In this document: piece by piece, positions 31,366 through 52,714 of the stretch | Numbering within the stretch: position 1 is the stretch's first letter | Layout: every line of letters begins with the position of its first letter | Assembly: GCA_041739545.1 (NCBI GenBank) | Contig: JBGSNR010000042.1 | Location: 1 to 63,997 of the forward strand | Length of the DNA stretch: 63,997 nt | Reading direction: 5' to 3' | DNA from: Pirellulaceae bacterium | GTDB taxonomy: Bacteria; Planctomycetota; Planctomycetia; Pirellulales; Pirellulaceae | Notes under the pieces: model-generated | Databases searched by the model: none | Seen by the model: only the letters and a program-made list of their open reading frames with translations | Told to the model about the DNA's origin: nothing | Made by a program: the position numbers and the translations under genes

Positions 31366-33432
31366 TTGGCACCTAAGATGAGCAGCGTGATGTTATCGTG
31401 CCCCATCTGTCACGGGGCGCTGGAAATCGATACGCAACTGGCCGGGCAGCAGGTGCAATGTCCCCTTTGCCAGAGCCTGCTGGAACTGCCGCCGCTAGAA
31501 GTGTTGCAGGGGATGAGTGGTCCCCAGCACCCAGGCTTCGGCCCTCCGCCAGAACCTCCCGGTTTTGGCCCGCCGCCCGGCCCGCCTCCGTTTGGTCCGC
31601 CGGGCGGATTTCCACCGCCGGGAGCGAATTTTCCCCCCGATGCCTATGGTCCGCCCCCGGTAGGGCAACCGTTTGAACCGCCGCCGGGTCAGCCGTTCGG
31701 CATGCCCTCGCCGGCCTATCCTCCGCCACCGGCATTTGGTCCGCCCCCGGTTGGTTCGGGCGGTTTTGGTCCCCCTGTTGAGCCGGGGCCTCCTGTGGGG
31801 TCGTTGCCCGGGGAAGGATTGGGATCGCCACCGATGGGGCAGGCGGTTGGTCCGTTTGCCCCACCTTCAAGTAATTTTGGACCTCCGGGCGGTGGAGTTG
31901 CGCAAGTGCCGATGGGAAGTGTGCCGGTCGGCTCGGTGCCGATGGGCCAGATTCCGATAGGAAATGTTCCATTCGGATCTGTACCCCTGGGGCAAGTTCC
32001 GATGGGGCAATCGCTGCCGGCTGCCGATGCGATGCCGATCCCCAGCGGCCTACCGGTGAACGTGCCAGCCGGGATGCCGACGGAGGCGAAATCAGAAACG
32101 GCAACGACCCCTGCTGTTCCAGCAGCTTCCTCACCGGGCAAGCCGGAGCGGAAGAAGCCAGCGGTGCGTGAAGGGTATGCTTCCCTGAAATGCCCGCGCT
32201 GCTCGGGCCCACTCACCGTCCCGTTGACTGCCGCCGGTCGCGAGATCACCTGCAGCCATTGCAAACGCCAGATGACGCTGCCTACGCGGGAGGTTTTGAC
32301 TCGCATGGCAGGGGGAGAAGCAGCCGAGCAAGCTGTCCCTAAAGAATCCGTCGCGACAACACCGCCAACTGATCGGCCGAAGGCTCCAACGCCGGCAAAG
32401 ACGAAGCCCAAGACAACGCCAGAGATTACGCAGTCGCCGACAACCAAGCCGGCCGAGCCAAGCCACGCGGTACCAAAGCCGGCGACGAACGAAGCCCAGT
32501 CAGCGGCTTCACCTCCGTCACCGCTGCCGCCAGAGTTGCCACCGCCCAGTCTTTCCCTCCCGCCGACAGTTCCACTCCAAACATCAGCGCCTCCCGCGGA
32601 CTTGCCGCCGAGCTTCGAACTTCCGCCGAGTGCCTCGCCTCCCAAGCCAGAACTTCCACCACCAACCATGGTGGCCGAAATTCCTCCCGCAGCCGTCCCG
32701 GAACTTCCGTCGCCGTCTGCTCCCGAGCCCGCACCGGCATTCGAACTGCCACCCAGCGTGGACCTGCCGCCAGCTGCGGATTTGCCCCCCCCTGCCGAAC
32801 TTCCGCCCTCTGCCGAGTGGGCCTCTTCGCTTCCTCCCGCGGCAGAGCTTCCGCCGGAGTTGCCACCTGAACTTCCGCCTCAGTTGCCACCCAGTACCGA
32901 ACTCCCTCCCGCGGCGGATCAACCTTCGCCGGTTCCTGCTGCTGCTCCGCGAACGGAAAAAAAGTCCCGCCGCCGCGAACGGGAAATTGAGGATCTCTTG
33001 CCGCCTGGTGCTGCCACCGCAGAAGATCTCGGCCTACCTCCGGGGGCAGACTTGGGTCTTCCACCGGCCGCGGAAATTCCCATCTATCGCACCGCTGCCG
33101 ATGCCCTGCTTCCGCCGGGTGCCGCGGACGAGCCGTTGCTTGAGCCGGGCAAAGAACAAGCCTTGCCCCAGCCGGAAGAAAAATTGGCTCCCGGCACGTT
33201 TGCCCCTCCCCCTGGTGCTCCTGGCGAAGGGCTAGTGACCTTGCCCACCGCGGACGGCCGGTTTACCACGATCCGGGACACGGGGAAGGTGATCGGCAAG
33301 GGGGACGACGAGATCGAACTGCGGCGTCTCACCCCCGAAGAAAAAGCCCGCCGCCGCTTTATTCGCAACATCATCATGGCCCTGTTTTGCCTGGGAATTT
33401 TGGGGCTGGTGAGCTGGTGGATGACTGCGTAG
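31366..33432 (+). CDS. membrane-anchored Pro-rich protein with two MJ0042-type zinc ribbons
   Basis: CPICHGALEIDTQLAGQQVQCPLCQ at the N-terminus and CPRCSGPLTVPLTAAGREITCSHCKR mid-protein. Long P/G and ELPP/PT-rich repeats and a C-terminal TM (IIMALFCLGILGLVSWW). Antisense ORFs are rejected. Confidence 0.65.
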   Translation: MAPKMSSVMLSCPICHGALEIDTQLAGQQVQCPLCQSLLELPPLEVLQGMSGPQHPGFGPPPEPPGFGPPPGPPPFGPPGGFPPPGANFPPDAYGPPPVGQPFEPPPGQPFGMPSPAYPPPPAFGPPPVGSGGFGPPVEPGPPVGSLPGEGLGSPPMGQAVGPFAPPSSNFGPPGGGVAQVPMGSVPVGSVPMGQIPIGNVPFGSVPLGQVPMGQSLPAADAMPIPSGLPVNVPAGMPTEAKSETATTPAVPAASSPGKPERKKPAVREGYASLKCPRCSGPLTVPLTAAGREITCSHCKRQMTLPTREVLTRMAGGEAAEQAVPKESVATTPPTDRPKAPTPAKTKPKTTPEITQSPTTKPAEPSHAVPKPATNEAQSAASPPSPLPPELPPPSLSLPPTVPLQTSAPPADLPPSFELPPSASPPKPELPPPTMVAEIPPAAVPELPSPSAPEPAPAFELPPSVDLPPAADLPPPAELPPSAEWASSLPPAAELPPELPPELPPQLPPSTELPPAADQPSPVPAAAPRTEKKSRRREREIEDLLPPGAATAEDLGLPPGADLGLPPAAEIPIYRTAADALLPPGAADEPLLEPGKEQALPQPEEKLAPGTFAPPPGAPGEGLVTLPTADGRFTTIRDTGKVIGKGDDEIELRRLTPEEKARRRFIRNIIMALFCLGILGLVSWWMTA

Positions 33433-43257: not shown

Positions 43258-45510
43258 TCACTTGACCGGAACCACCAGGATGGCGTCAAGAATAACGAAG
43301 CCGATGGTGTCCGTGTTTTTGATGTGGATGGTGGTTTCGACACCGGCCTCCAACTCAACGGTGCCAATGAGCTGAAAATGCTGACCGTTGGGCAAAGGTA
43401 GGGTTTGGTCAACGGTGAACTTCGTTTCGCCCGTGCCGCTGGCAACGGTCACAGGGACGTTTTTGGCACGGGTCTCATGCGCGGAATAGGCCATCAGCAA
43501 CTTGTACTGGCCCGACTTGGGAGCCTTGAAACGGAAGGTTGCTGAATCCTTGCCGTCGCCACGAGCGTCTTTCGCTCCGCTAAAAACGTAGCCGCTTCCC
43601 ACACATGGTTTGAACTGCGCCGATGGCTTCCAATTGCCGGCGAGTTCTGCGGTGGCGTCGTCGAGAACTATGCCTGGCAAAGAATCCACCGGGATGAATC
43701 CGCTTCCTGACGTCGCCTCCGTCTTCACCACCTCAGGCAGGTCGAGTACCTGTCCCTGCGCCAATAGCCGCTCGCGCAGCACTGAATAGGGCAAATCTTG
43801 CACTGCGATATCTCGTTTTGCTGCCAGTGCCGCCGCTACCCCCGCCCCCTGGCCGATGACCATCCATGCCCCTTCGATCCGCAAGGATGACATCCCGACA
43901 TGCGTACAGGAAAGTGCCACCGGTACGAGCAGGTTGCTGCACTGGTCAGCCTTCGGCAGCACGGAACGATAGGGGACGTGATAGGCGTATCCAATCCCGG
44001 TCCCTTTGACTCGCACCGGGAAGATCGTCCCCTCGTTAATTACCCCGCCGTCCTTCAATGCCACGCGCTGGCAGTCGTGCGAGTCGATGGGGAAAGAAGA
44101 GATTGCGATGGGGTCGTCCTTTTTCGGCGAATCGATAATGTCTTTTTGGGAAATCACATACATTCCCTGCAAGCGGCGGGATTCACGAACGTAGAGTGCG
44201 GGTGAAAAGTGCTCCGTTTCGGCGAACTCGTCTTTGCAGAGCCCGAGGTCGGCGAACTTGTCACGGATGTTTTTCGGCACGGCCGGATCGGTACAGAGGA
44301 AATGGATGAACTCCAGCGTGTACTGCTGGTGAGCTTCCCAAATCTTTTGGCGGCCCGCTTCATCCGCGCTGTGCCAGTCGTTGCAAGCACCGACGAGTCC
44401 CAAAGAAATTTGCCCGCCGATCGAATTATTGCCGTCGACTTTTTTGCCGGGCAGCGGATAGAGATCAAAACCCACGTGGGCACCAACTTTAAGAGCCCGG
44501 CGGGCCAGTTCGAAGCGGGCGGGATCGTAGTTCGCCGGTCTGGGCATCGGAACCCTATTCGTTGGGTCCGACGTCAGGCAGAGCCGGAAGCTATAGGTCA
44601 TCAGGTTCTTGTCCCCTGCTTCGTCGGGACCGGCGTCGCTGGTGGTGATGAGCGGCAGAAGGTTGCCTTTCTCATCGAAGCCGCTGATATTCATTTTCCG
44701 CTTCGGAAATTGTTTTCCAGCGTAGGATTCGCCGAACTCGGCACGACTTTCGCGGCCAATCGTCCAGCTCACACCAGCGGCGGCCATGAGATCTCCCTCG
44801 TAGGAGCCGTCGACGAAAACCTTGGCCTGGAACTCACCTTGCTTGGTGACGAGCGACGTGATGCGCGTGCCGTTTTTCTTGACCGAGATAAGATACTGCT
44901 TGGTCATCACGGTGACGCCGCTCTCCTTCAGCATCTGCGAGGTTACGCGCGAGGCGACGTGCGGTTCAAACGTCCACCGCGCCTGGTCTTTGAGTTGCGG
45001 ATCGTAGGGCGCGGGAAGCCCACGGTCGGTGTAGTCCTTTACAATCCGCGTGTGCCATTCGTCGAATAGGCCCAGCAGCGTAGAACGCACCATTTGATTG
45101 GAGTCGCAGTGGCTCAGACCACCAGTGCTGAGGCCGCCGACATGAGCGGTCGGCTCGAGAAGAATCACCGAAGCACCCTCGCGGGCGGCGGCGATGGCGG
45201 CGCAGAACCCGCCCGGCGTAGAACCATAAACGATGACGTCGGCGGAGTTTTGCGCGAACGCTGCGAAGATTGTGGAAACCCACATAACCAAGGATAAGGC
45301 AACCGTGCGTGTGCTCATCGGCAACATTCTCTTTTGCGATCGTTGGGAAATCCTACGTACCTGAAATTGATGCCATTCAGCCGTCCTTTGCAAAAACGAG
45401 CCAACAGCCCTATTAGTCCACAACGTCATTCGGGGCCGCGGGGGCGGGAGGACCAGTCGGCTTGGGCGGCGGGTTGGGATTGGGCTTCGGCGGCGGCGGA
45501 CGACCTTCAC
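43258..45510 (-). CDS. secreted FAD-dependent oxidoreductase (PF12831-like; often mis-annotated as xanthan lyase) with extra C-terminal beta domain
   Basis: Signal peptide, then ADVIVYGSTPGGFCAAIAAAREGASVILLEPTAHVGGLSTGG (FAD-binding GxGxxG). Probable start is 45327 or 45318. The first ~60 codons of the ORF are Arg/Pro-rich and probably untranslated. Confidence 0.75.
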   Translation of the reverse strand: MKVVRRRRSPIPTRRPSRLVLPPPRPRMTLWTNRAVGSFLQRTAEWHQFQVRRISQRSQKRMLPMSTRTVALSLVMWVSTIFAAFAQNSADVIVYGSTPGGFCAAIAAAREGASVILLEPTAHVGGLSTGGLSHCDSNQMVRSTLLGLFDEWHTRIVKDYTDRGLPAPYDPQLKDQARWTFEPHVASRVTSQMLKESGVTVMTKQYLISVKKNGTRITSLVTKQGEFQAKVFVDGSYEGDLMAAAGVSWTIGRESRAEFGESYAGKQFPKRKMNISGFDEKGNLLPLITTSDAGPDEAGDKNLMTYSFRLCLTSDPTNRVPMPRPANYDPARFELARRALKVGAHVGFDLYPLPGKKVDGNNSIGGQISLGLVGACNDWHSADEAGRQKIWEAHQQYTLEFIHFLCTDPAVPKNIRDKFADLGLCKDEFAETEHFSPALYVRESRRLQGMYVISQKDIIDSPKKDDPIAISSFPIDSHDCQRVALKDGGVINEGTIFPVRVKGTGIGYAYHVPYRSVLPKADQCSNLLVPVALSCTHVGMSSLRIEGAWMVIGQGAGVAAALAAKRDIAVQDLPYSVLRERLLAQGQVLDLPEVVKTEATSGSGFIPVDSLPGIVLDDATAELAGNWKPSAQFKPCVGSGYVFSGAKDARGDGKDSATFRFKAPKSGQYKLLMAYSAHETRAKNVPVTVASGTGETKFTVDQTLPLPNGQHFQLIGTVELEAGVETTIHIKNTDTIGFVILDAILVVPVK

Positions 45511-46663
45511 AGGGAACCGTTAAACCTAACCCTTCGCGCCAGGTGTAGCTCACCGTGTAGGGTTCCCAGCCAGCCATGACATCCATCTCGTCGCAGACAC
45601 TGCGCGCTGCCACGTAGGCGTCAAAACTGTCGTCCCAAACCAGAAACCGCAAGTAGAAACTATCCCCGTGCTGTTGCTTCAGAGCCAGCAGACCGCGTTG
45701 AAATTTAGAACTCTTGTTGACAACTTGCTGAGGCGTCTCACCGCCGGTAGGTCGCAGTTCGAAGACAATCTGGACGCTGAAATTAACGACGGCCAACTGC
45801 ACCTTGAAGTTGCTATCGTAGACCCGGCTATTCTTATTGAATTCGGCCACCAGCTTTTCGCAATCGACTTCTCCGCTCTTCTTTTTGAGCGTGGGCGAAC
45901 GCAGCAAGGCCTCTACCTGCTTCTTGCAGCGACTCTTAATGTCTGTTGGATTGAAAGGTACGATCTGGCCATCGCGCACAATCACGCGATATTCCTTCGC
46001 CCCTGTCGGAGGATTACGTGGGTTCGGCAGGTTAACGATTTTAGCAGGGGGTGCTGCCACAACTTCCGTTTCGTCGAGCAAGGCTTTCAGGCGAGCCAGT
46101 TCCGATTCGACAGTAACAAGCTGCTTGCTTAATTCATCCCCCTTCTTCTTCTCTGCTTCGACCTTCGTTTTGGCGTCGTCAACCTTTGCTTCAGGAATAA
46201 TCTGTTTAGGTTGCTGCGCTTTAAGGGCACTAATCTGCTGAACCAGCACCCCGAAATTCTCCGTTGGCCCCGGGCCACTGGTCTGAGTGACCTTGGCTTC
46301 GAGTTCGGTCCGCAGCGCGCGAAGCTGCGCGGCTTCCTTATCCGCCTTGGTCAAATCGGCCGGCGAAACATTGAGCTGAGAAGGATCGATATCGAGAATG
46401 CGCTGCACCGCTTGCTGAACATTGAGAGTCGTCAACATCAGCACCATCACCAGCACACCGACCACATTGGTCAATGTGTCCAGGAGGGAATCCAGATTCA
46501 TCTCCGCGTTATTGCGAGGTCGCTTGGCCATACGCGTCCATTGCCTAGTTGCTGGTGAAGAGGGAGAGGTCAAGGTTTCCTTGCGAACCGATCGCCAACT
46601 TGCCGTTCGACACCAACCGGCCGCGGGCAATATTCCGGGCTGCGTTATAGGTCCCGACCCCAT
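45413..46663 (-). CDS. ExbD/TolR-like TM protein with coiled-coil and unknown C-terminal domain (third gene of the motor-like operon)
   Basis: Probable start 46531 (MAKRPRNNAEMNLDSLLDTLTNVVGVLVMVLMLTT, an ExbD-type N-terminus plus TM). A ~100-aa coiled coil follows, then a ~200-aa novel domain and a Pro-rich tail. Using 46531 removes the overlap with the upstream gene. Confidence 0.6.
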   Translation of the reverse strand: MGSGPITQPGILPAAGWCRTASWRSVRKETLTSPSSPATRQWTRMAKRPRNNAEMNLDSLLDTLTNVVGVLVMVLMLTTLNVQQAVQRILDIDPSQLNVSPADLTKADKEAAQLRALRTELEAKVTQTSGPGPTENFGVLVQQISALKAQQPKQIIPEAKVDDAKTKVEAEKKKGDELSKQLVTVESELARLKALLDETEVVAAPPAKIVNLPNPRNPPTGAKEYRVIVRDGQIVPFNPTDIKSRCKKQVEALLRSPTLKKKSGEVDCEKLVAEFNKNSRVYDSNFKVQLAVVNFSVQIVFELRPTGGETPQQVVNKSSKFQRGLLALKQQHGDSFYLRFLVWDDSFDAYVAARSVCDEMDVMAGWEPYTVSYTWREGLGLTVPCEGRPPPPKPNPNPPPKPTGPPAPAAPNDVVD

Positions 46664-47405
46664 CGGGGCGAATCAAAAATACCACCGTTGTTTTCGGCGT
46701 CCGCTTGACTTGCTCGAGCAGTTTGGTGAATTCCGCATGTCCCGCCATCTGAGCCGCCGGGATCCGCAACGGATCGGGGCGGTCATGCAGCACAATGCTC
46801 CCCGCACTGCATTCCACAAACACCGGCTTTAAGTCCGAGCCACTTCCGCTGGGCTTGATTTGCACCTGAGCTTCTTCCGGCGGCTCCTTGAGTTTAGCCA
46901 CTTCTGCTTTTAGTTTTTCCAGTTGCGCTAGCAGCGGCTTCAGACGTTCTTCCAAGGCGGCATTCTCTTGGAGTAGCTGGTCCAAACGCTGCTGCTGCAC
47001 GTTCAAAGCGATTTCTCGTTGTGTTGCCATTTCTGCATTGCTGACCACGCTCGCCTGCAGCGCAGCCGCCTCTTTTTTTGCTTCGGCAATATTCGCGGCC
47101 ATGATCGCGGCATCTTGCGCCGCGGCTTGGACCTTACTGACCTGAATTTTGAGTTCCGCCAGCTTCTCCTGATCGGCTTTGGCTTGATCGCGCAGTTGCT
47201 TGAACTTCTCTGCCCGAGCCTTTGCTTCGGCAGCCGCTTCCGCCGCTGCCTCGGCGTCGGCAGTCGCTTGGGGATTGTCTTTGCCGATCTGTCCCAGGGT
47301 GATGGCCGTAATCATCAGCACGAGAATCCCAATCACCGCAGCCAGAATGCTGAGAAAAGGAAACAAGCTAACGGAATCCTCGATACTTGCTTTCGCTCGA
47401 GCCAT
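46545..47405 (-). CDS. ExbD/TolR-family protein with ~150-aa coiled-coil insertion
   Basis: N-terminal FPFLSILAAVIGILVLMITAIT (ExbD-like TM). C-terminal VFVECSAGSIVLHD...TTVVFLIRPDGVGTYNAARNIARG...KLAIG aligns to the ExbD periplasmic domain (VILSVKADGSVYL...TTIFFRADKTVDYETLMKVMD..AG..KIGLV). Confidence 0.7.
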   Translation of the reverse strand: MARAKASIEDSVSLFPFLSILAAVIGILVLMITAITLGQIGKDNPQATADAEAAAEAAAEAKARAEKFKQLRDQAKADQEKLAELKIQVSKVQAAAQDAAIMAANIAEAKKEAAALQASVVSNAEMATQREIALNVQQQRLDQLLQENAALEERLKPLLAQLEKLKAEVAKLKEPPEEAQVQIKPSGSGSDLKPVFVECSAGSIVLHDRPDPLRIPAAQMAGHAEFTKLLEQVKRTPKTTVVFLIRPDGVGTYNAARNIARGRLVSNGKLAIGSQGNLDLSLFTSN

Positions 47406-47447
47406 CGTTTCGATCCTGCTGCCAACTCGACTAACAACTTTACCGTG

Positions 47448-49133
47448 CTATCTTCCAAACCAACCGCGTTGCGGCGGATGTTGAACTTGAATTACAACCT
47501 GCTTGCCGTTTAGCTGCCCCAACGTGTCGTTCAGATTGACGACCGCCGCCTGGAGCAAACCAAATTGCTCATCCAAAGATTGTGTTGATTGTTGCAGGAG
47601 TGCCGCCACTTGCTGATGGCCGGCAGTCGCCTGGGTAGTTAGCTGATCGTTCATCTGGTGCGCCCAGGCCGCCTGCTGTTGCTGCGTCTGCTGCAATTGC
47701 TCAGTGAGACTTGCCATCTGCGTGGTGACGGTGCCCAGCGATACAACGGCCGTTTGAAATTCATTCAGTCGTTCGGCATGCACAGACTGTAAATTTCCCT
47801 GCATGGTCGTCCAGCCTTGAGTGATTTCATCCGTCAATGATTTTCCAATCTCTTGCAGACGTGCGGTCCAGGCCCGCAACTCTGCCTGATGGGGAATCAG
47901 TGCGGCATTGATCGCCTGATTTAGGGTCGCTTCGCTGGTCAGTGGGGCTGAAGGCCGACTGGACTCTTCGTCGACGAGGCGCTTCAGCAGATTCTCATTG
48001 CAGTACTCCTCCACCCAGTTCAGCAGATCTTCTTCGGCCTTCTGTAGCGAACTGGCCGGAAACTTGAGAAACAAACTCATGATCAGCGCCACCAACGTCG
48101 TATCGAACGCGACCCCTAGCCCGCCGGTAATGGCCCCCAGCGACTTCTTAATGCTATCCACGTCTGAGGCGGCTTCCAGGCTGCCCGAAAGATTTCCTAC
48201 GGCATTACCTAATCCCTGTACCGTTCCGATGAATCCCAGAATTGGAATTGCCCAGATGAACACATTCAGCAGTCCATAGCTGGAACCCACGGCAGCGTTA
48301 TCCAGTTCTGACTGCGAGGAGAGGATCGTCGAAACCTCGGAAGCACTTCCGCGCACGCTGTAGTGTTCCAGGCCGCGTAATACACGTCGCACCAGAAAAC
48401 TGGCTCCGGTGTCGACCGGGATATCACGAACATGCTCGGTAAACTTATCAACATTGCGAAGAGAAATGTCTTTGCTGATATTTTCTGGAAGCAGGTCGAA
48501 CAACATCGATTCGCGCTGCCGCACGAGTTTGCGCGACTTGAGGATCAAGATGGCAATCGCCCAAAACATGAAGAATGCTTCGGCAACGGTTACCCACCCC
48601 CGATTAAAAAACAGGTCGCGGAAGTAGTTGGCAGGAATCGGTGCCAGGGCGGCATAAAAAATCACCGTGAAGAGGAGCCCAATGGCGGACGTCCACACCA
48701 TGCTGATGTTGGTGCCGTCGTCATTCGAGCGCGTTTGTTGATTCCCTTTGGGCTTTGCCGTGGGCCGATTCGCGCTGGCGGCAAATGCTCCCCTGCCTGC
48801 CGGCGTTGTCGCAGAACCAGGCTTCGACAGCGCTTTGGCCACAGGCGCTCGCAGCTCATTGGTTCGGGGGGCCGTCCCGCCGAATCCACCCAGTGCCGGC
48901 CCCTCGGCGGGAGTTGTTCCGCGCGATTCGGCTGGTGCCCCGAACGACGGCGAGTTCAGGTCCATGGAAGCCAGGTCGAAAGAGGGAACCGATTCTGGTT
49001 CAGGCGCGGGCTTGTCCGGCACCGTGACTTGATGCTTGCAATACGGACAGCGCGCATTGCGACCCGCCAATTCGTCTCGAACACGAAGATTTTTACTGCA
49101 ACTGGGGCACGCGAAATTGAAATACATCGCCAA
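47448..49133 (-). CDS. MotA/TolQ/ExbB-family proton-channel protein with N-terminal MJ0042-type zinc ribbon and Gln-rich coiled-coil C-terminal extension
   Basis: N-terminus CPSCSKNLRVRDELAGRNARCPYCKHQV. Channel core GLLNVFIWAIPILGFIGTVQGL and AITGGLGVAFDTTLVALIMSLF. A ~170-aa Q-rich tail follows. Confidence 0.8.
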   Translation of the reverse strand: MAMYFNFACPSCSKNLRVRDELAGRNARCPYCKHQVTVPDKPAPEPESVPSFDLASMDLNSPSFGAPAESRGTTPAEGPALGGFGGTAPRTNELRAPVAKALSKPGSATTPAGRGAFAASANRPTAKPKGNQQTRSNDDGTNISMVWTSAIGLLFTVIFYAALAPIPANYFRDLFFNRGWVTVAEAFFMFWAIAILILKSRKLVRQRESMLFDLLPENISKDISLRNVDKFTEHVRDIPVDTGASFLVRRVLRGLEHYSVRGSASEVSTILSSQSELDNAAVGSSYGLLNVFIWAIPILGFIGTVQGLGNAVGNLSGSLEAASDVDSIKKSLGAITGGLGVAFDTTLVALIMSLFLKFPASSLQKAEEDLLNWVEEYCNENLLKRLVDEESSRPSAPLTSEATLNQAINAALIPHQAELRAWTARLQEIGKSLTDEITQGWTTMQGNLQSVHAERLNEFQTAVVSLGTVTTQMASLTEQLQQTQQQQAAWAHQMNDQLTTQATAGHQQVAALLQQSTQSLDEQFGLLQAAVVNLNDTLGQLNGKQVVIQVQHPPQRGWFGR

Positions 49134-49789
49134 TCAAGTTTGGAAAAAGCTGCTTAGAAAGTACCAAGACGTGCTAAAGTCGCGTCGCCATCATCATCAG
49201 CTAAAAGCAGTGCGGAAGTAACCGCCCAAGCGAGTAGGCGACTGAGAATGTTTTCAGCAACTTACTCGGACTCTAGGGACTTTTAATCTTATTCAAAGCA
49301 AGTCCTGCCTGCAGCAGAATTGTTATGCATCCAGGCCAGCTTTTCTGGGTCTCATAGCTGGCGACGTCTCGAGTGACCTGCAATGCAATTGGATTGGAAA
49401 GTGGACACTTGAGCGATTGACCTGATGGCCTGGAATTCAAGCGGCAACCGCAGTGACAATTGCTGTAGGTGATTCCAGCAAAAGGGGGCCACGACGGAAC
49501 GCTACACCCCACGTTCAGGCTAGGGGAGGCAACTCGGCGTTCACATAATCGCCTGTTGCGACTTGCGGTGAATCTGATCGACAATTGAAGCGTCGGCAGC
49601 ACCCAATGGCCGACCGATGGCAAACTGCGTGACTTTCCAAGCAATGGTTTCACGAACGCGGTCGCTCTTGCCGTTCCTTTGTCTCCAAAAACTCAGTCAG
49701 CTGTTTGTGCCCGTGCCCAATGGCGCAGGCGAAGTGGCTGTACTGTAATTAGGGAATTACGCGAGATGCCAAAACAGGCCGCTCGCGCA

Positions 49790-51244
49790 TCACTTTCCCT
49801 TATTCTTCCCTTCAGCAGGGTTGGGGCGGTTGAGGTACAGTTGGAACTCCCAGCGGTCCTTCCACTCGGTTAAGTAACGTGCGTACTGCGGCGCTTCGGT
49901 CCAGGATATCGACGGCGGATCGGGTGGTGAAACTTTCCCTTCTGGATAATCTTTCCCTTGGAAACTCTCCTCGGCCTTGCTGTTCCAGTCGAGCAGCGCT
50001 TGCTTCATGCGCGCGAAGTCCGCAGGCTGTTCGGCACTCAAGTCACGAGATTCTTGCGGGTCCGCAACGACGTCGTAAAGCTCAAATGCATCTCGGCGGC
50101 GGTCGTTGTTGATGATCTTATAACGGTTGCCGATCAAAGCTAGTTTCTGCCCGAATCGGAAGGGAATCGCCTCCGCTCGCTCGCCAACCTCGGCAGCAAG
50201 CAACGGCTTCAGACTGATTCCATCGAGCGGCTTCACGAAGACATCCTGAGGCAAGCCGAGAATATCCGCGACGGTGGGAAACAGATCCATCGTGCAAGCT
50301 GGAAAGCTGGTGACGCGTGGCTTCACGACGGCGGGCCACTCGATGATGCCCGGTACGCGCAGCCCGCCTTCATAAACGGTCCCTTTGTTGCCGCGCAACC
50401 CGCCGACCGTGTCGGGTTTGATGCCCGCCAGTCCGCCGTTATCGCTGCAGAAGACCAACAGAGTGTTGTCGGCGAGCTTGAACTCACGAAGCTTGGAACG
50501 GAGCGTACCGACCGCCCGGTCCATTGCCACCAATTCGCCGTAGTGATTCGCAGAGGCTTCATTGAGTTCGCTAAACGGCGCTTTATCGTCCGGCAAAGCG
50601 CGAAACGGACTGTGCGGCGTACCGAACCAGATGACGGCGAACATCGGCTGACTCCCCTGGCGATGCTTGTCGAGGAACTTCACCCCCTCGGCGACGGCAA
50701 TCTCGGAAGAGTCCCCCTTAAACTGCTCGATCTCTCCGCCTCGGCTCATCAGCGGATCCACGTCATAAAAATTGGTCACCGAGACCCATTCGTCAAAGCC
50801 AAAGACGCTGGGGCTGCGCGGGTCGTCGCGCAGAATCGGAACTCCGGGCCCCTTGAAGCCGTTGAGATGCCATTTGCCAAAGTGACCGGTGACATAGCCG
50901 GCCCCCTGCAGCGCTTGGGCAATCGTTTTCTCTTGCAGCCGCAACGCGTAACCGTGCGTGAGCACGCCCGTGCGATCAGGCGAACGCCCCGTCAGAACAC
51001 TCGCCCGGGTCGGCGAACATACCGGGCAGCCCGCATAGAACCGCTCAAAGCGCAGGCCGCTCGCTGCCATCGCATCGAGATGGGGCGTTTTAAGCACCGG
51101 ATGTTCGCGATACCCGGTTTGCCCCCAACCCATATCATCGGCCATCACAAACACAATGTTGGGTCGTTCGGCAGCCGATGCAGCGTGGGTAGTGCAGCAC
51201 GCGAAAAGGACGATCAACGTCTTGATGAGCAAGTAAGTTTTCAT
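49790..51244 (-). CDS. secreted arylsulfatase-family (formylglycine-dependent) sulfatase
   Basis: Signal peptide, then NIVFVMADDMGWG and CPVCSPTRASVLTGR (C-x-P-x-R FGly motif). Confidence 0.9.
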   Translation of the reverse strand: MKTYLLIKTLIVLFACCTTHAASAAERPNIVFVMADDMGWGQTGYREHPVLKTPHLDAMAASGLRFERFYAGCPVCSPTRASVLTGRSPDRTGVLTHGYALRLQEKTIAQALQGAGYVTGHFGKWHLNGFKGPGVPILRDDPRSPSVFGFDEWVSVTNFYDVDPLMSRGGEIEQFKGDSSEIAVAEGVKFLDKHRQGSQPMFAVIWFGTPHSPFRALPDDKAPFSELNEASANHYGELVAMDRAVGTLRSKLREFKLADNTLLVFCSDNGGLAGIKPDTVGGLRGNKGTVYEGGLRVPGIIEWPAVVKPRVTSFPACTMDLFPTVADILGLPQDVFVKPLDGISLKPLLAAEVGERAEAIPFRFGQKLALIGNRYKIINNDRRRDAFELYDVVADPQESRDLSAEQPADFARMKQALLDWNSKAEESFQGKDYPEGKVSPPDPPSISWTEAPQYARYLTEWKDRWEFQLYLNRPNPAEGKNKGK

Positions 51245-51276: not shown

Positions 51277-52714
51277 CTACTGCAGCTGCGGTTTGCCAGG
51301 AACGAGTGAAGACTGATGCAGCTTTACTGCTTCTAAAATCTGAGCCACCACCTCAGCGTGAGCGGCAGCTACATTTCGTTTCTCGGAGGGGTCGCGACCC
51401 AGATGAAACAGTTGCGGAGGGGCGTGCTCTTCGGCCTTCGCAGCACCGTAGCCCGTTTGAGTTTTGAAATGGGCCTTCCATTCACCGAGGCGGCAAGCAA
51501 AGAGCTGGTCGCCGCGGTAATAGAAGAAGGGCCGCGGCGCCAGCGGTGCTTGATCAAACAGCAGCGGGGCCAAATCCACGCCATCGAGCGTCACTTTGTC
51601 GGAGGGCTTAGTGCCTGCCAGGGCTAGCGCTGTGGGGAGCAAATCCAGCGTCCCTGCGAGTTGGCTCGTTACGCCAGGCTTGATTCGCCCCGGCATCCAA
51701 GCGATGCCCGGCACGCGCATGCCACCTTCCCAAGTGCTTCCTTTGCCATCGCGCAGCAGTCCGGCACTCCCTCCTTGATCCCCCATGATGAGCCACGGGC
51801 CGTTGTCGCTGGTGAAAATCACCAGCGTTCGTTCGGCAATTCCTTCATTACGCAACGCTTCCAGCACCTGCCCCACGCTCCAGTCGAGTTCCTCCACGGC
51901 GTCGCCATAAATGCCCGCGCGGCTCTTCCCCTTGAACGCTGGCGAGGCAAACATCGGCACGTGGGGGAAAGTATGAGCGAAGTACAAAAAGAACGATTTG
52001 TCCTTCTGATCGTGAATGAATTTAACGGCCTCTTCCGCGTAACGCTTCGTGAGGGTCGTCTGGCTGCTCGATGATTTTGCCATCCCGGATCAGCGGTACA
52101 TTCCAGCCGTCCTCAGGCGGATTCGGCGAGCCAGTCGCGCCCCGCGGCAGATCGGCCCGGGCATCCATGTCGTTGGAATACGGCAAGCCAAAACTGTGCT
52201 GGAATCCCTGGTCGAGCGGCCGCGAGCCTTCGTGGATCCCCAGATGCCATTTGCCGATGTGGGCGGTAGCGTATCCTTGCTCCTGCAGCGCTTCGGCAAT
52301 GGTGATCTCTTCCGGCGGAAGCCCACCCTTCGAGTTCGGAAACAACACACGCCGACTGCCGCACATGCCGTTGCGAATTGGATAGCGACCCGTCAGCAAC
52401 GCCGCTCGGCTAGGGGTGCAGACTTCGGATGCCGAGTAGAAATCAGTGAACCGCAGCCCTTCTGCCGCCATGCGATCCAGGTGCGGAGTGCGAATCGTCG
52501 GCGAGCCATAACAGCCAAGATCACCGTAACCAAGATCATCGGCGAAAATTACGATGACATTGGGACGAGGCGTGTCTGCCCACCCGCTATCCGTCAGGCA
52601 AGCGAATAGAAGACAAGCAATGAATGGAGCCAGCGACATTCGACTAAAGGACATGGATATTTGCTCTGCTGAGAGGAATCTGTGATAAAATAATCCGAAA
52701 TAGTTTTGTGCCAT
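51277..52714 (-). pseudogene. arylsulfatase-family sulfatase interrupted by a single-base frameshift near 52045-52060 (pseudogene or sequencing error)
   Basis: N-terminal fragment 52022..52714 (signal peptide, [26 protein letters not shown]) ends ...[18 protein letters not shown]-terminal fragment 51277..52083 continues in another frame as ...[17 protein letters not shown]. Joining the two gives the normal sulfatase ...[15 protein letters not shown]... junction. Confidence 0.75.

Follow-up and report, generated by a model that had tools for sequence, protein, structure and literature searches.

How do bacteria with an outer membrane energize their outer envelope when the systems that usually do so are scarcely represented? 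Planctomycetes and related groups possess a true outer membrane. The Tol-Pal system is reported to be largely reduced in Planctomycetes (PMC8871954), and neither TonB, TolA nor TolB is among the rows listed in the TraDIS (transposon-directed insertion-site sequencing) gene table of Planctopirus limnophila, where a classical ExbB-ExbD-ExbD operon is present (Plim_1696-1698). Here, we analyzed a stretch of 63,997 nucleotides (nt) from a Pirellulaceae bacterium (contig JBGSNR010000042.1 of assembly GCA_041739545.1; hereafter, “the window”), which carries a three-gene cassette, gA-gB-gC, encoding one MotA/TolQ/ExbB-like protein and two TolR/ExbD-like proteins. The cassette is a conserved candidate for energizing the outer envelope that is restricted to the Planctomycetes-Verrucomicrobia-Chlamydiae (PVC) bacteria, and it most likely encodes an undescribed membrane-embedded, proton-driven rotary motor related to the Tol, Ton, and flagellar ones. 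Our full-text literature searches found no description of this architecture.

The three genes lie on the minus strand and are co-directional, as the original prediction, made from the letters of the DNA, had placed them. Specifically, gA (47448..49133) encodes 561 amino acids (aa) from a TTG start codon and is the MotA/TolQ/ExbB-family subunit, which is predicted to form the pentameric ring of the motor; gB (46545..47405) encodes a TolR/ExbD-like axle subunit of 286 aa; and gC (45413..46531) encodes a paralogue of gB with 372 aa. The matching NCBI-called proteins have 559, 286, and 372 aa, the shorter gA being explained by a start two codons past the TTG. The gaps between the genes (42 nt for gA-gB and 13 nt for gB-gC) are consistent with a single operon, in which gB and gC directly follow gA, the usual position for B subunits.

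The proposed assignment of gA to the MotA/TolQ/ExbB family is borne out by profile searches. The Pfam family MotA_ExbB (PF01618) matches aa 253-370 with 32 bits (E = 1.2e-7), above its gathering score of 22.9, and the same family is precomputed for nearly all gA homologues, of which the searched set holds more than 1600, about all of them from Planctomycetota. When the gA profile was aligned by hhalign with manually entered reference sequences, Escherichia coli TolQ matched over the last two membrane helices with 31% identity (E = 5.6e-4), placing gA T304 opposite TolQ Thr145, and the match to MotA was weaker (E = 0.058).

Around this core, gA carries additional parts that are predicted to face the cytoplasm. 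At the N terminus, aa 5-40 (49014..49121) form a putative four-Cys zinc ribbon (C9, C12, C29, and C32). All four Cys are invariant among 50 aligned homologues, and the CxxC...CxxC pattern that had been predicted here recurs in 114 of 120 homologues, while every zinc-ribbon model scores below its threshold (Zn_ribbon_4, PF13717, E = 0.008 and 16.5 bits vs 30.3; MJ0042, TIGR02098, 12.7 vs 20.9). Among solved structures, the ribbon matches RpoP and the zinc ribbon of GltJ/AgmX (7zok), neither of them significantly. The ribbon is followed by an Ala/Pro/Gly low-complexity linker, identified by composition (aa 41-149; 48687..49013), which is unconserved, variable in length and sequence, and gap-rich in the alignment.

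Hydropathy places four membrane segments in gA, at aa 150-168, 180-198, 287-305, and 338-356. The first two are joined by a short loop (48540..48686), and a Lys/Arg cluster follows helix 2. Since a Cys4 zinc ribbon must be cytoplasmic, the four segments place both termini in the cytoplasm. MotA has four membrane helices as well, so that, judged from hydropathy and alignment, the predicted topology of gA is MotA-like on a TolQ-like core. Between the two helix pairs lies a cytoplasmic loop domain (aa 199-286; 48276..48539), which, in alignments of 50 to 115 homologues, is the most conserved part of the protein, with very strongly conserved KSRKLxxQRESMLFDLLPE and RVLRGLEH motifs. Helices 3 and 4 (aa 287-356; 48066..48275) form the channel core and carry the conserved motifs WAIPILGFIGTVQG and AFDTTL; with residue numbers, these read WAIPILGFIGT304VQG and AFD344T345T346L. 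T304 of helix 3 and D344, T345, and T346 of helix 4 are invariant in 50 sequences (T302, D342, T343, and T344 in the numbering of the 559-aa protein). We note that the invariant Asp344 (48102..48104, minus strand) sits within membrane helix 4, two residues before the conserved Thr, where it might compensate for an Asp that is absent from gB, as described below.

The last membrane helix is followed by a cytoplasmic tail (aa 357-561; 47448..48065), delimited by conservation, heptad occupancy, and composition. It opens with a conserved helix just past the membrane (QKAEEDLLNWVEEYCNENLLKRL), continues through a variable, Gln-rich stretch of helix, and closes with a conserved tip, KQVVIQ...RGWFGR. 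Its Gln richness, which the original prediction had pointed out, amounts to 16% Q over aa 372-561. Genomes differ in the length of this tail (111-268 aa), which is about 200 aa here. In the PADLOC library of defense-system models, the best match of gA is ZorA2 (E = 1.1e-8, 32.5 bits), which covers aa 300-525.

Zinc ribbons of the same type are found elsewhere in the window. A 688-aa protein encoded at 31366..33432 (plus strand) has two ribbons of the form CPxC-x(15-16)-CPxC, very long low-complexity regions rich in Pro, and, at its C terminus, a single membrane anchor, and it matches the gA profile with E = 1.5e-10. The occurrence of such proteins suggests a family of membrane-tethered cytoplasmic modules that share a partner.

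The two partner proteins were predicted to be ExbD/TolR-like, and for them the evidence is more remote. The ExbD family PF02472 has no match in full-length gB or gC, the sole trace of such a family being TIGR02804 in gB (E = 0.49); in this respect, the prediction fails if judged by the plain ExbD hidden Markov model (HMM). It holds through remote homology, by way of trimmed gB, TolR-aligned pore helices, and paralogy. Specifically, once the coiled coil is removed, PF02472 becomes the commonest Pfam family among gB homologues (6 of 25; best E = 0.0023, sub-threshold), and the trimmed gB aligns with E. coli TolR colinearly across 96 columns (hhalign, E = 0.0047). The corresponding alignment with E. 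coli ExbD is not significant (E = 0.15). At their N termini, both gB and gC resemble TolR/ExbD in layout: a few basic residues come first, and then a single membrane helix.

In gB, this pore helix (aa 12-39, SLFPFLS19IL) is followed by a single helix of 122 residues (aa 51-172) and by a TolR-fold domain (aa 185-286). The predicted Ala/Glu/Gln coiled coil is supported by the composition of aa 45-180 (27% Ala, 13% Glu, and 12% Gln) and by the AlphaFold2 model, which has a mean predicted local distance difference test (pLDDT) score of 85.6 and consists of a membrane helix, a continuous helix over aa 51-172 (pLDDT 93-97), and an alpha/beta domain over aa 193-271. In this model, the C-terminal periplasmic domain shows the alpha/beta fold of TolR/ExbD.

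gC is a full-length paralogue of gB: the two profiles align by hhalign over pore helix, stalk, and end domain (probability 99.2%, E = 1.3e-19). The pore helix of gC (nearly invariant motif LDSLLD18TLTNVVG) is followed by a conserved juxtamembrane AVxRI motif and a helical stalk; an LPNPR motif comes next, and after it a TolR-like domain (aa 167-336) and the Pro-rich tail (aa 337-372). Relative to gB, gC adds the AVxRI motif, which could act as a plug or collar, an invariant LPNPRxAPxG, an insert of ~80 residues in the end domain, and the tail. Consequently, of what had been predicted for gC, the ExbD-like N terminus with one membrane helix stands, and the large “uncharacterized” C-terminal domain is replaced by a gB-paralogous domain with an insert and a Pro-rich tail. 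The fold evidence for gC itself is weaker, and we assign it a TolR-like domain because of its paralogy to gB. The tail (45416..45523, minus strand) is 39% Pro and ends here in DVVD; across the family, the C terminus is a nearly invariant [VI]D (e.g., PNDVVD or PTDVID). Tetratricopeptide repeat clamps bind C-terminal peptide ligands of a similar kind, such as the EEVD motif, and, by this analogy, [VI]D may be a docking element for a periplasmic partner, an idea that we return to below.

The pore helices of gB and gC differ at the position that would bind the proton. A single alignment column holds gC Asp18, gB Ser19, and TolR Asp23, with gC aligned to TolR by way of gB. Across 63 sequences of gC, L16, D18, N22, V23, and G25 are invariant. 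Position 19 of gB is Ser in 55 of 57 genomes and is Asp in a subclade (FPFLDIM), which indicates that the ancestral axle pair was probably Asp/Asp. The pore-helix Asp is therefore present in gC and missing from most gB proteins.

The stalks of the two proteins are matched in length. Measured in 57 genomes, the residues separating the pore-helix motif from the beginning of the end domain number 135-164 in gB (median 145) and 140-159 in gC (median 149), and the two lengths are weakly correlated (Spearman 0.36, P = 0.006). A helix of 122 residues measures ~18 nm. Lengths so matched and constrained are consistent with a gB/gC pair acting as a shaft of fixed reach; the cytoplasmic tail of gA, in contrast, varies freely in length. 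It had been suggested that the long coiled coils of the cassette span the periplasm. This applies to the stalks of gB and gC, which are periplasmic, but not to the tail of gA, which is cytoplasmic by topology and cannot do so.

The cassette recurs widely. At E ≤ 1e-30, the gC family accounts for 436 of the 1.84 billion cluster representatives searched, with lengths tightly grouped at 340-395 aa, and a scan of one genome per species returned 371 relatives. Most belong to Planctomycetota (Pirellulales, Planctomycetales, Phycisphaerae, Thermoguttaceae, Kolteria, and Gimesia), and others are found in Victivallales and Kiritimatiellae; the version in Verrucomicrobiales keeps every signature motif. 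When 80 related loci from Planctomycetota, Verrucomicrobiota, Lentisphaerota, and Kiritimatiellota were fetched, gA, gB, and gC were adjacent in this order in 65, i.e., in every locus that had all three genes (65 of 65), which answers the question of conservation raised with the original prediction. With hundreds of homologues per protein and a recurrent order, the cassette is not a chance feature. Furthermore, its PVC-wide spread and the amino-acid identity of its proteins between genera (60-74%) fit a vertically inherited core function rather than a defense island.

No other family stands beside the cassette in more than ~10 of the 80 loci, the recurrences being among genomes that are close relatives. 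The absence of an adjacent TonB, TolA, MotB-type, or flagellar gene, noted earlier for this stretch, extends to its relatives: no TonB, TolA, Pal, OmpA-type, or flagellar neighbor was seen in the window flanks or in the five loci inspected gene by gene, and none was a conserved neighbor across the 80. In Gimesia-type genomes, gC stands alone (locus L026, 6983..8107) and gA-gB lie elsewhere (locus L088), so the third gene is retained even without linkage. The divergent neighbor of this lone gC (L026, 4203..6005, minus strand) encodes a 600-aa membrane protein with an N-terminal CPSC...CPLC zinc ribbon followed by an acidic low-complexity region. Planctomycetales bacterium ZRK34 (CP050848.1; loci L016 and L018) has two complete gA-gB-gC cassettes, distant from each other on the chromosome.

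How would such a motor work? That gA-gB-gC form an ion-driven motor of the 5:2 MotAB/ExbBD/TolQR class we hold with high confidence, and the driving ion is most likely the proton. Five gA subunits would form the ring, inside which one copy each of gB and gC would contribute its N-terminal pore helix to a heterodimeric axle. Asp18 of gC would carry the proton, facing the conserved Thr of gA helices 3 and 4, and the loss of the gB Asp in most lineages would make the axle chemically asymmetric. Above the membrane, stalks of matched length (~145 residues, up to ~18 nm) would each end in a TolR-type domain, to which gC would add its Pro-rich tail with [VI]D. The axle itself would thereby serve as the shaft to the peptidoglycan/outer-membrane zone, carrying force or position information, a job done elsewhere by a separate TolA or TonB. 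On its cytoplasmic face, the ring would bear five zinc ribbons, tethered by flexible linkers, together with five helical tails whose tip is conserved; these parts would hold the ring, regulate it, or report to a partner in the cytoplasm. For the statement as a whole, i.e., a 5:2 motor with a gB/gC shaft and periplasm-directed output, we consider the case to be about evenly balanced. By analogy with Tol, its role in PVC bacteria would most likely be a housekeeping one, in which the inner membrane is coupled to both wall and outer membrane.

Several results weigh against this reading. A profile of 50 gA homologues retrieved no ExbB, TolQ, MotA, or ZorA chain from PDB sequences, which marks gA as a distant family member. 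Against Pfam, NCBIfam, and PADLOC, full-length gB and gC gave only coiled-coil noise (SMC, Rad50, LmuB, and JetC), and the profiles of gB, gC, and trimmed gB gave coiled-coil matches or nothing against PDB sequences. For gC, removal of the coiled coil left PF02472 in 0 of 10 homologues, TolR and generic alpha/beta folds match its fold equally well, and a Foldseek search of the PDB returned nothing significant, the top matches being RNase-H-like integrase cores (E = 0.018). Near the cassette, no outer-membrane or wall partner is encoded, and for this reason the Tol-like role is drawn from architecture alone. To our knowledge, all characterized 5:2 motors of the MotB/ExbD/TolR type have an Asp on both axle helices, and we know of no tested precedent for a one-Asp axle. 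Finally, Plim_1834-1836 of P. limnophila, which are annotated as a MotA/TolQ/ExbB protein and two hypothetical proteins, are all non-essential in TraDIS (PMC10632474, supplementary file 3). The conservation columns of Plim_1834 (19/19/2) suggest planctomycete restriction, and the orthology of these genes to the cassette is by annotation pattern only, unconfirmed by sequence; if they are truly orthologous, the role of the cassette is dispensable in laboratory culture.

The alternative that survives best keeps the same motor and turns its output toward the cytoplasm, in the manner of MotAB or Zorya. Here, the TolR-like domains of gB and gC would anchor the axle to the peptidoglycan and the gA ring would turn, so that its tails and ribbons turn, signal to, or recruit a cytoplasmic partner. 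We consider this less likely than the reading that we favor. In Tol and Ton, domains of the TolR type serve as anchors to the wall (PMC10771500), the cytoplasmic loop is the most conserved part of gA, its long helical tail has a conserved tip, and the match to ZorA2, the best in the defense library, extends over both core and tail. In addition, the like zinc ribbons on other membrane-tethered proteins of the genome hint at a shared cytoplasmic partner. However, none of the 80 loci has a linked cytoplasmic effector gene. The length of the gA tail is loose whereas those of the stalks are tight, a contrast suggesting that what is critical is the periplasmic dimension, and the insert, Pro-rich tail, and conserved C-terminal residue of gC indicate a specific periplasmic partner. 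Whichever the direction of output, the conserved loop and tail tip of gA favor some cytoplasmic interaction.

Two further explanations appear improbable to a similar degree. In the first, the cassette energizes surface motility or secretion, like AglRQS or GldLM/PorLM, and its axle turns an outer-membrane track or a secretion pore. One TolQ-like subunit with two TolR-like ones is the layout of AglRQS (PMC9389320), a long periplasmic shaft on the axle is the principle of GldM/PorM (PMC8986121), and the gliding protein GltJ/AgmX has a similar zinc ribbon (7zok_A, E = 0.09). However, this last match is not significant, no gliding or type IX secretion genes are linked to the cassette, and neither sequence nor fold similarity to GldL or GldM was found, with GldL appearing only as coiled-coil noise; furthermore, the cassette occurs in lineages with very different lifestyles. 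In the second, the complex is inactive: having lost ion coupling, it would be a static scaffold or tether of the envelope. This would account for the Ser that replaces Asp at the proton-binding position of gB in most genomes and for the lack of any significant sequence match to a solved motor. However, the invariant Asp18 of gC and the gA Thr that would face it are hard to explain without ion coupling, and a subclade of gB retains its Asp.

The least probable alternative, which we reject, is a Zorya-like anti-phage module, a membrane motor sensing envelope damage during infection: the ZorA2 match and the ZorA-like cytoplasmic helical tail after the last membrane helix (PMC11946911) speak for it, but that match is no stronger in bits than the generic MotA_ExbB one, gA has four predicted membrane helices where ZorA has three (PMC11946911), gB and gC have neither the OmpA-type peptidoglycan-binding domain that ZorB carries nor a ZorB/C/D/E match in PADLOC, no effector genes of the ZorC, ZorD, or ZorE type are nearby, and the cassette is distributed as a phylum-wide core feature with varied housekeeping neighbors rather than as a patchy defense-island set. 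Two candidates were also set aside. A flagellar stator (MotAB/PomAB) was rejected because there is no OmpA domain, there are no flagellar neighbors, and gA aligns less well with MotA than with TolQ. A canonical Ton or Tol system was rejected because no TonB, TolA, TolB, or Pal gene is linked.

Returning to the motor with a periplasm-directed shaft, a more specific form of it can be put forward, tentatively: gA-gB-gC would be the PVC counterpart of Tol/Ton, in which the heterodimeric axle has absorbed the role of TolA/TonB and rotates as a shaft across the periplasm, works with a single proton-carrying Asp, docks to a partner in the outer envelope via the gC tail and its [VI]D, and is held or gated from the cytoplasm by the ribbon and tail of gA. 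If the axle does replace TolA/TonB, this would explain how the outer envelope is energized without canonical TolA, TolB, Pal, and TonB. A natural one-Asp axle would also put to the test current models in which two Asp take turns, and, with only three genes, the cassette is a compact target for cryogenic electron microscopy and, in Planctopirus or Gimesia, for genetics.

The surroundings of the cassette are unrelated to any Tol, Ton, or flagellar system. The flanking genes encode two sulfatases (one of them frameshifted), a WD40 protein, a flavin adenine dinucleotide (FAD) oxidoreductase, a DUF1559 pseudopilin-like protein, NIF3, and GlgC. Directly 3′ of the gC stop codon lies a weak terminator-like hairpin with a T-run (45398..45410, minus strand), for which position alone is suggestive, given that a promoter and terminator scan of the region yielded sites no more numerous than in shuffled sequence. 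A scan of positions 45000-50000 of the window against Rfam returned zero matches. The 656 nt upstream of gA (49134..49789) hold no convincing gene, the sole open reading frame (ORF) being a low-quality frame of 126 aa, and no Rfam match or consensus promoter was found there. Downstream of the cassette, the gene at 43258..45327 (minus strand) specifies a fusion of an FAD-dependent oxidoreductase and a Golvesin_C domain, the N terminus of the protein being signal-peptide-like; the longest ORF of this gene, which starts at 45510 and overlaps the 3′ end of gC by 98 nt, is probably too long. On the other side, an intact sulfatase (49790..51244) adjoins the frameshifted one, whose halves lie in two overlapping minus-strand ORFs in different frames: 51277..52083 is the C-terminal half (Pfam PF00884 profile positions 143-300), and 52022..52714 is the N-terminal half (positions 1-134). 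The frameshift in this sulfatase (51277..52714) marks either a pseudogene or a sequencing error.

Comparison with known motors shows what the cassette shares with each of them. With TolQ-TolR and ExbB-ExbD, it shares the core helices of gA, which align best with TolQ, including the conserved Thr, as well as the pore helices and TolR-type end domain of gB and gC and the A-then-B order of the genes. The stalk of gB, rich in Ala, Glu, Lys, and Gln, resembles domain II of TolA. In contrast to Tol and Ton, there is no third, laterally bound transducer (TolA/TonB), and no genes for TolB, Pal, CpoB, or TonB-dependent transporters are linked. Unlike TolQ and ExbB, gA is extended by an additional N-terminal membrane helix, a zinc ribbon, and a cytoplasmic tail of 200 aa. 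Linkers are short in TolR and ExbD, whereas gB and gC are two diverged paralogues with ~145-residue stalks and an Asp on one only, and the TolR/ExbD HMMs stay below threshold for both.

The original prediction also likened the cassette to the stators of gliding, ExbB-ExbD1-ExbD2, and Zorya systems. For the first two, the likeness stands: AglR-AglQ-AglS and ExbB-ExbD1-ExbD2 each combine one TolQ/ExbB-like subunit with two distinct TolR/ExbD-like subunits in one operon. In both, Asp is found on both B subunits. Their B subunits are short, however, and there are no coiled-coil stalks, zinc ribbon, or tail; no gliding or TonB partners are linked in gA-gB-gC loci. For Zorya, the arrangement does not hold, since it has one B subunit and not two. 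What ZorA-ZorB shares with the cassette is the long helical cytoplasmic tail after the last membrane helix of the A subunit. In ZorA, this tail measures ~70 nm and follows three membrane helices, ZorB comes from a single gene and carries an OmpA-like domain that binds the wall, and Zorya needs ZorC/D or ZorE (PMC11946911). By comparison, gA has a tail of ~200 aa, four hydrophobic segments instead of three, and a weak match to ZorA2 of 32.5 bits.

In the GldL-GldM motor, GldL has two membrane helices, and the ion-coupling residues are on GldL (Glu) and GldM (Arg), not an Asp of the axle. GldL-GldM and PorL-PorM nevertheless share with the cassette the principle that the axle subunit is itself a long periplasmic shaft toward the outer membrane (PMC8986121), although there is no detectable homology between them. 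A further, proposed group consists of TolQ-like motors with paired “transpore helix” von Willebrand A proteins, which also occur in PVC bacteria. These form heterologous pairs, with a TolR-like helix predicted to lie in a TolQ-like pentamer and an output domain of their own in the periplasm (PMC12204202). Their output domain is of the von Willebrand A type, whereas in the present cassette a coiled-coil stalk carries a TolR-like domain, and neither a zinc ribbon, a cytoplasmic tail, nor this cassette is described there; the same study stresses that further such systems await discovery. Altogether, the cassette unites features that are separate in known 5:2 motors, namely a TolQ-like core, an axle of paralogues with one Asp, a GldM-like coiled-coil shaft, and a ZorA-like tail on the ring.

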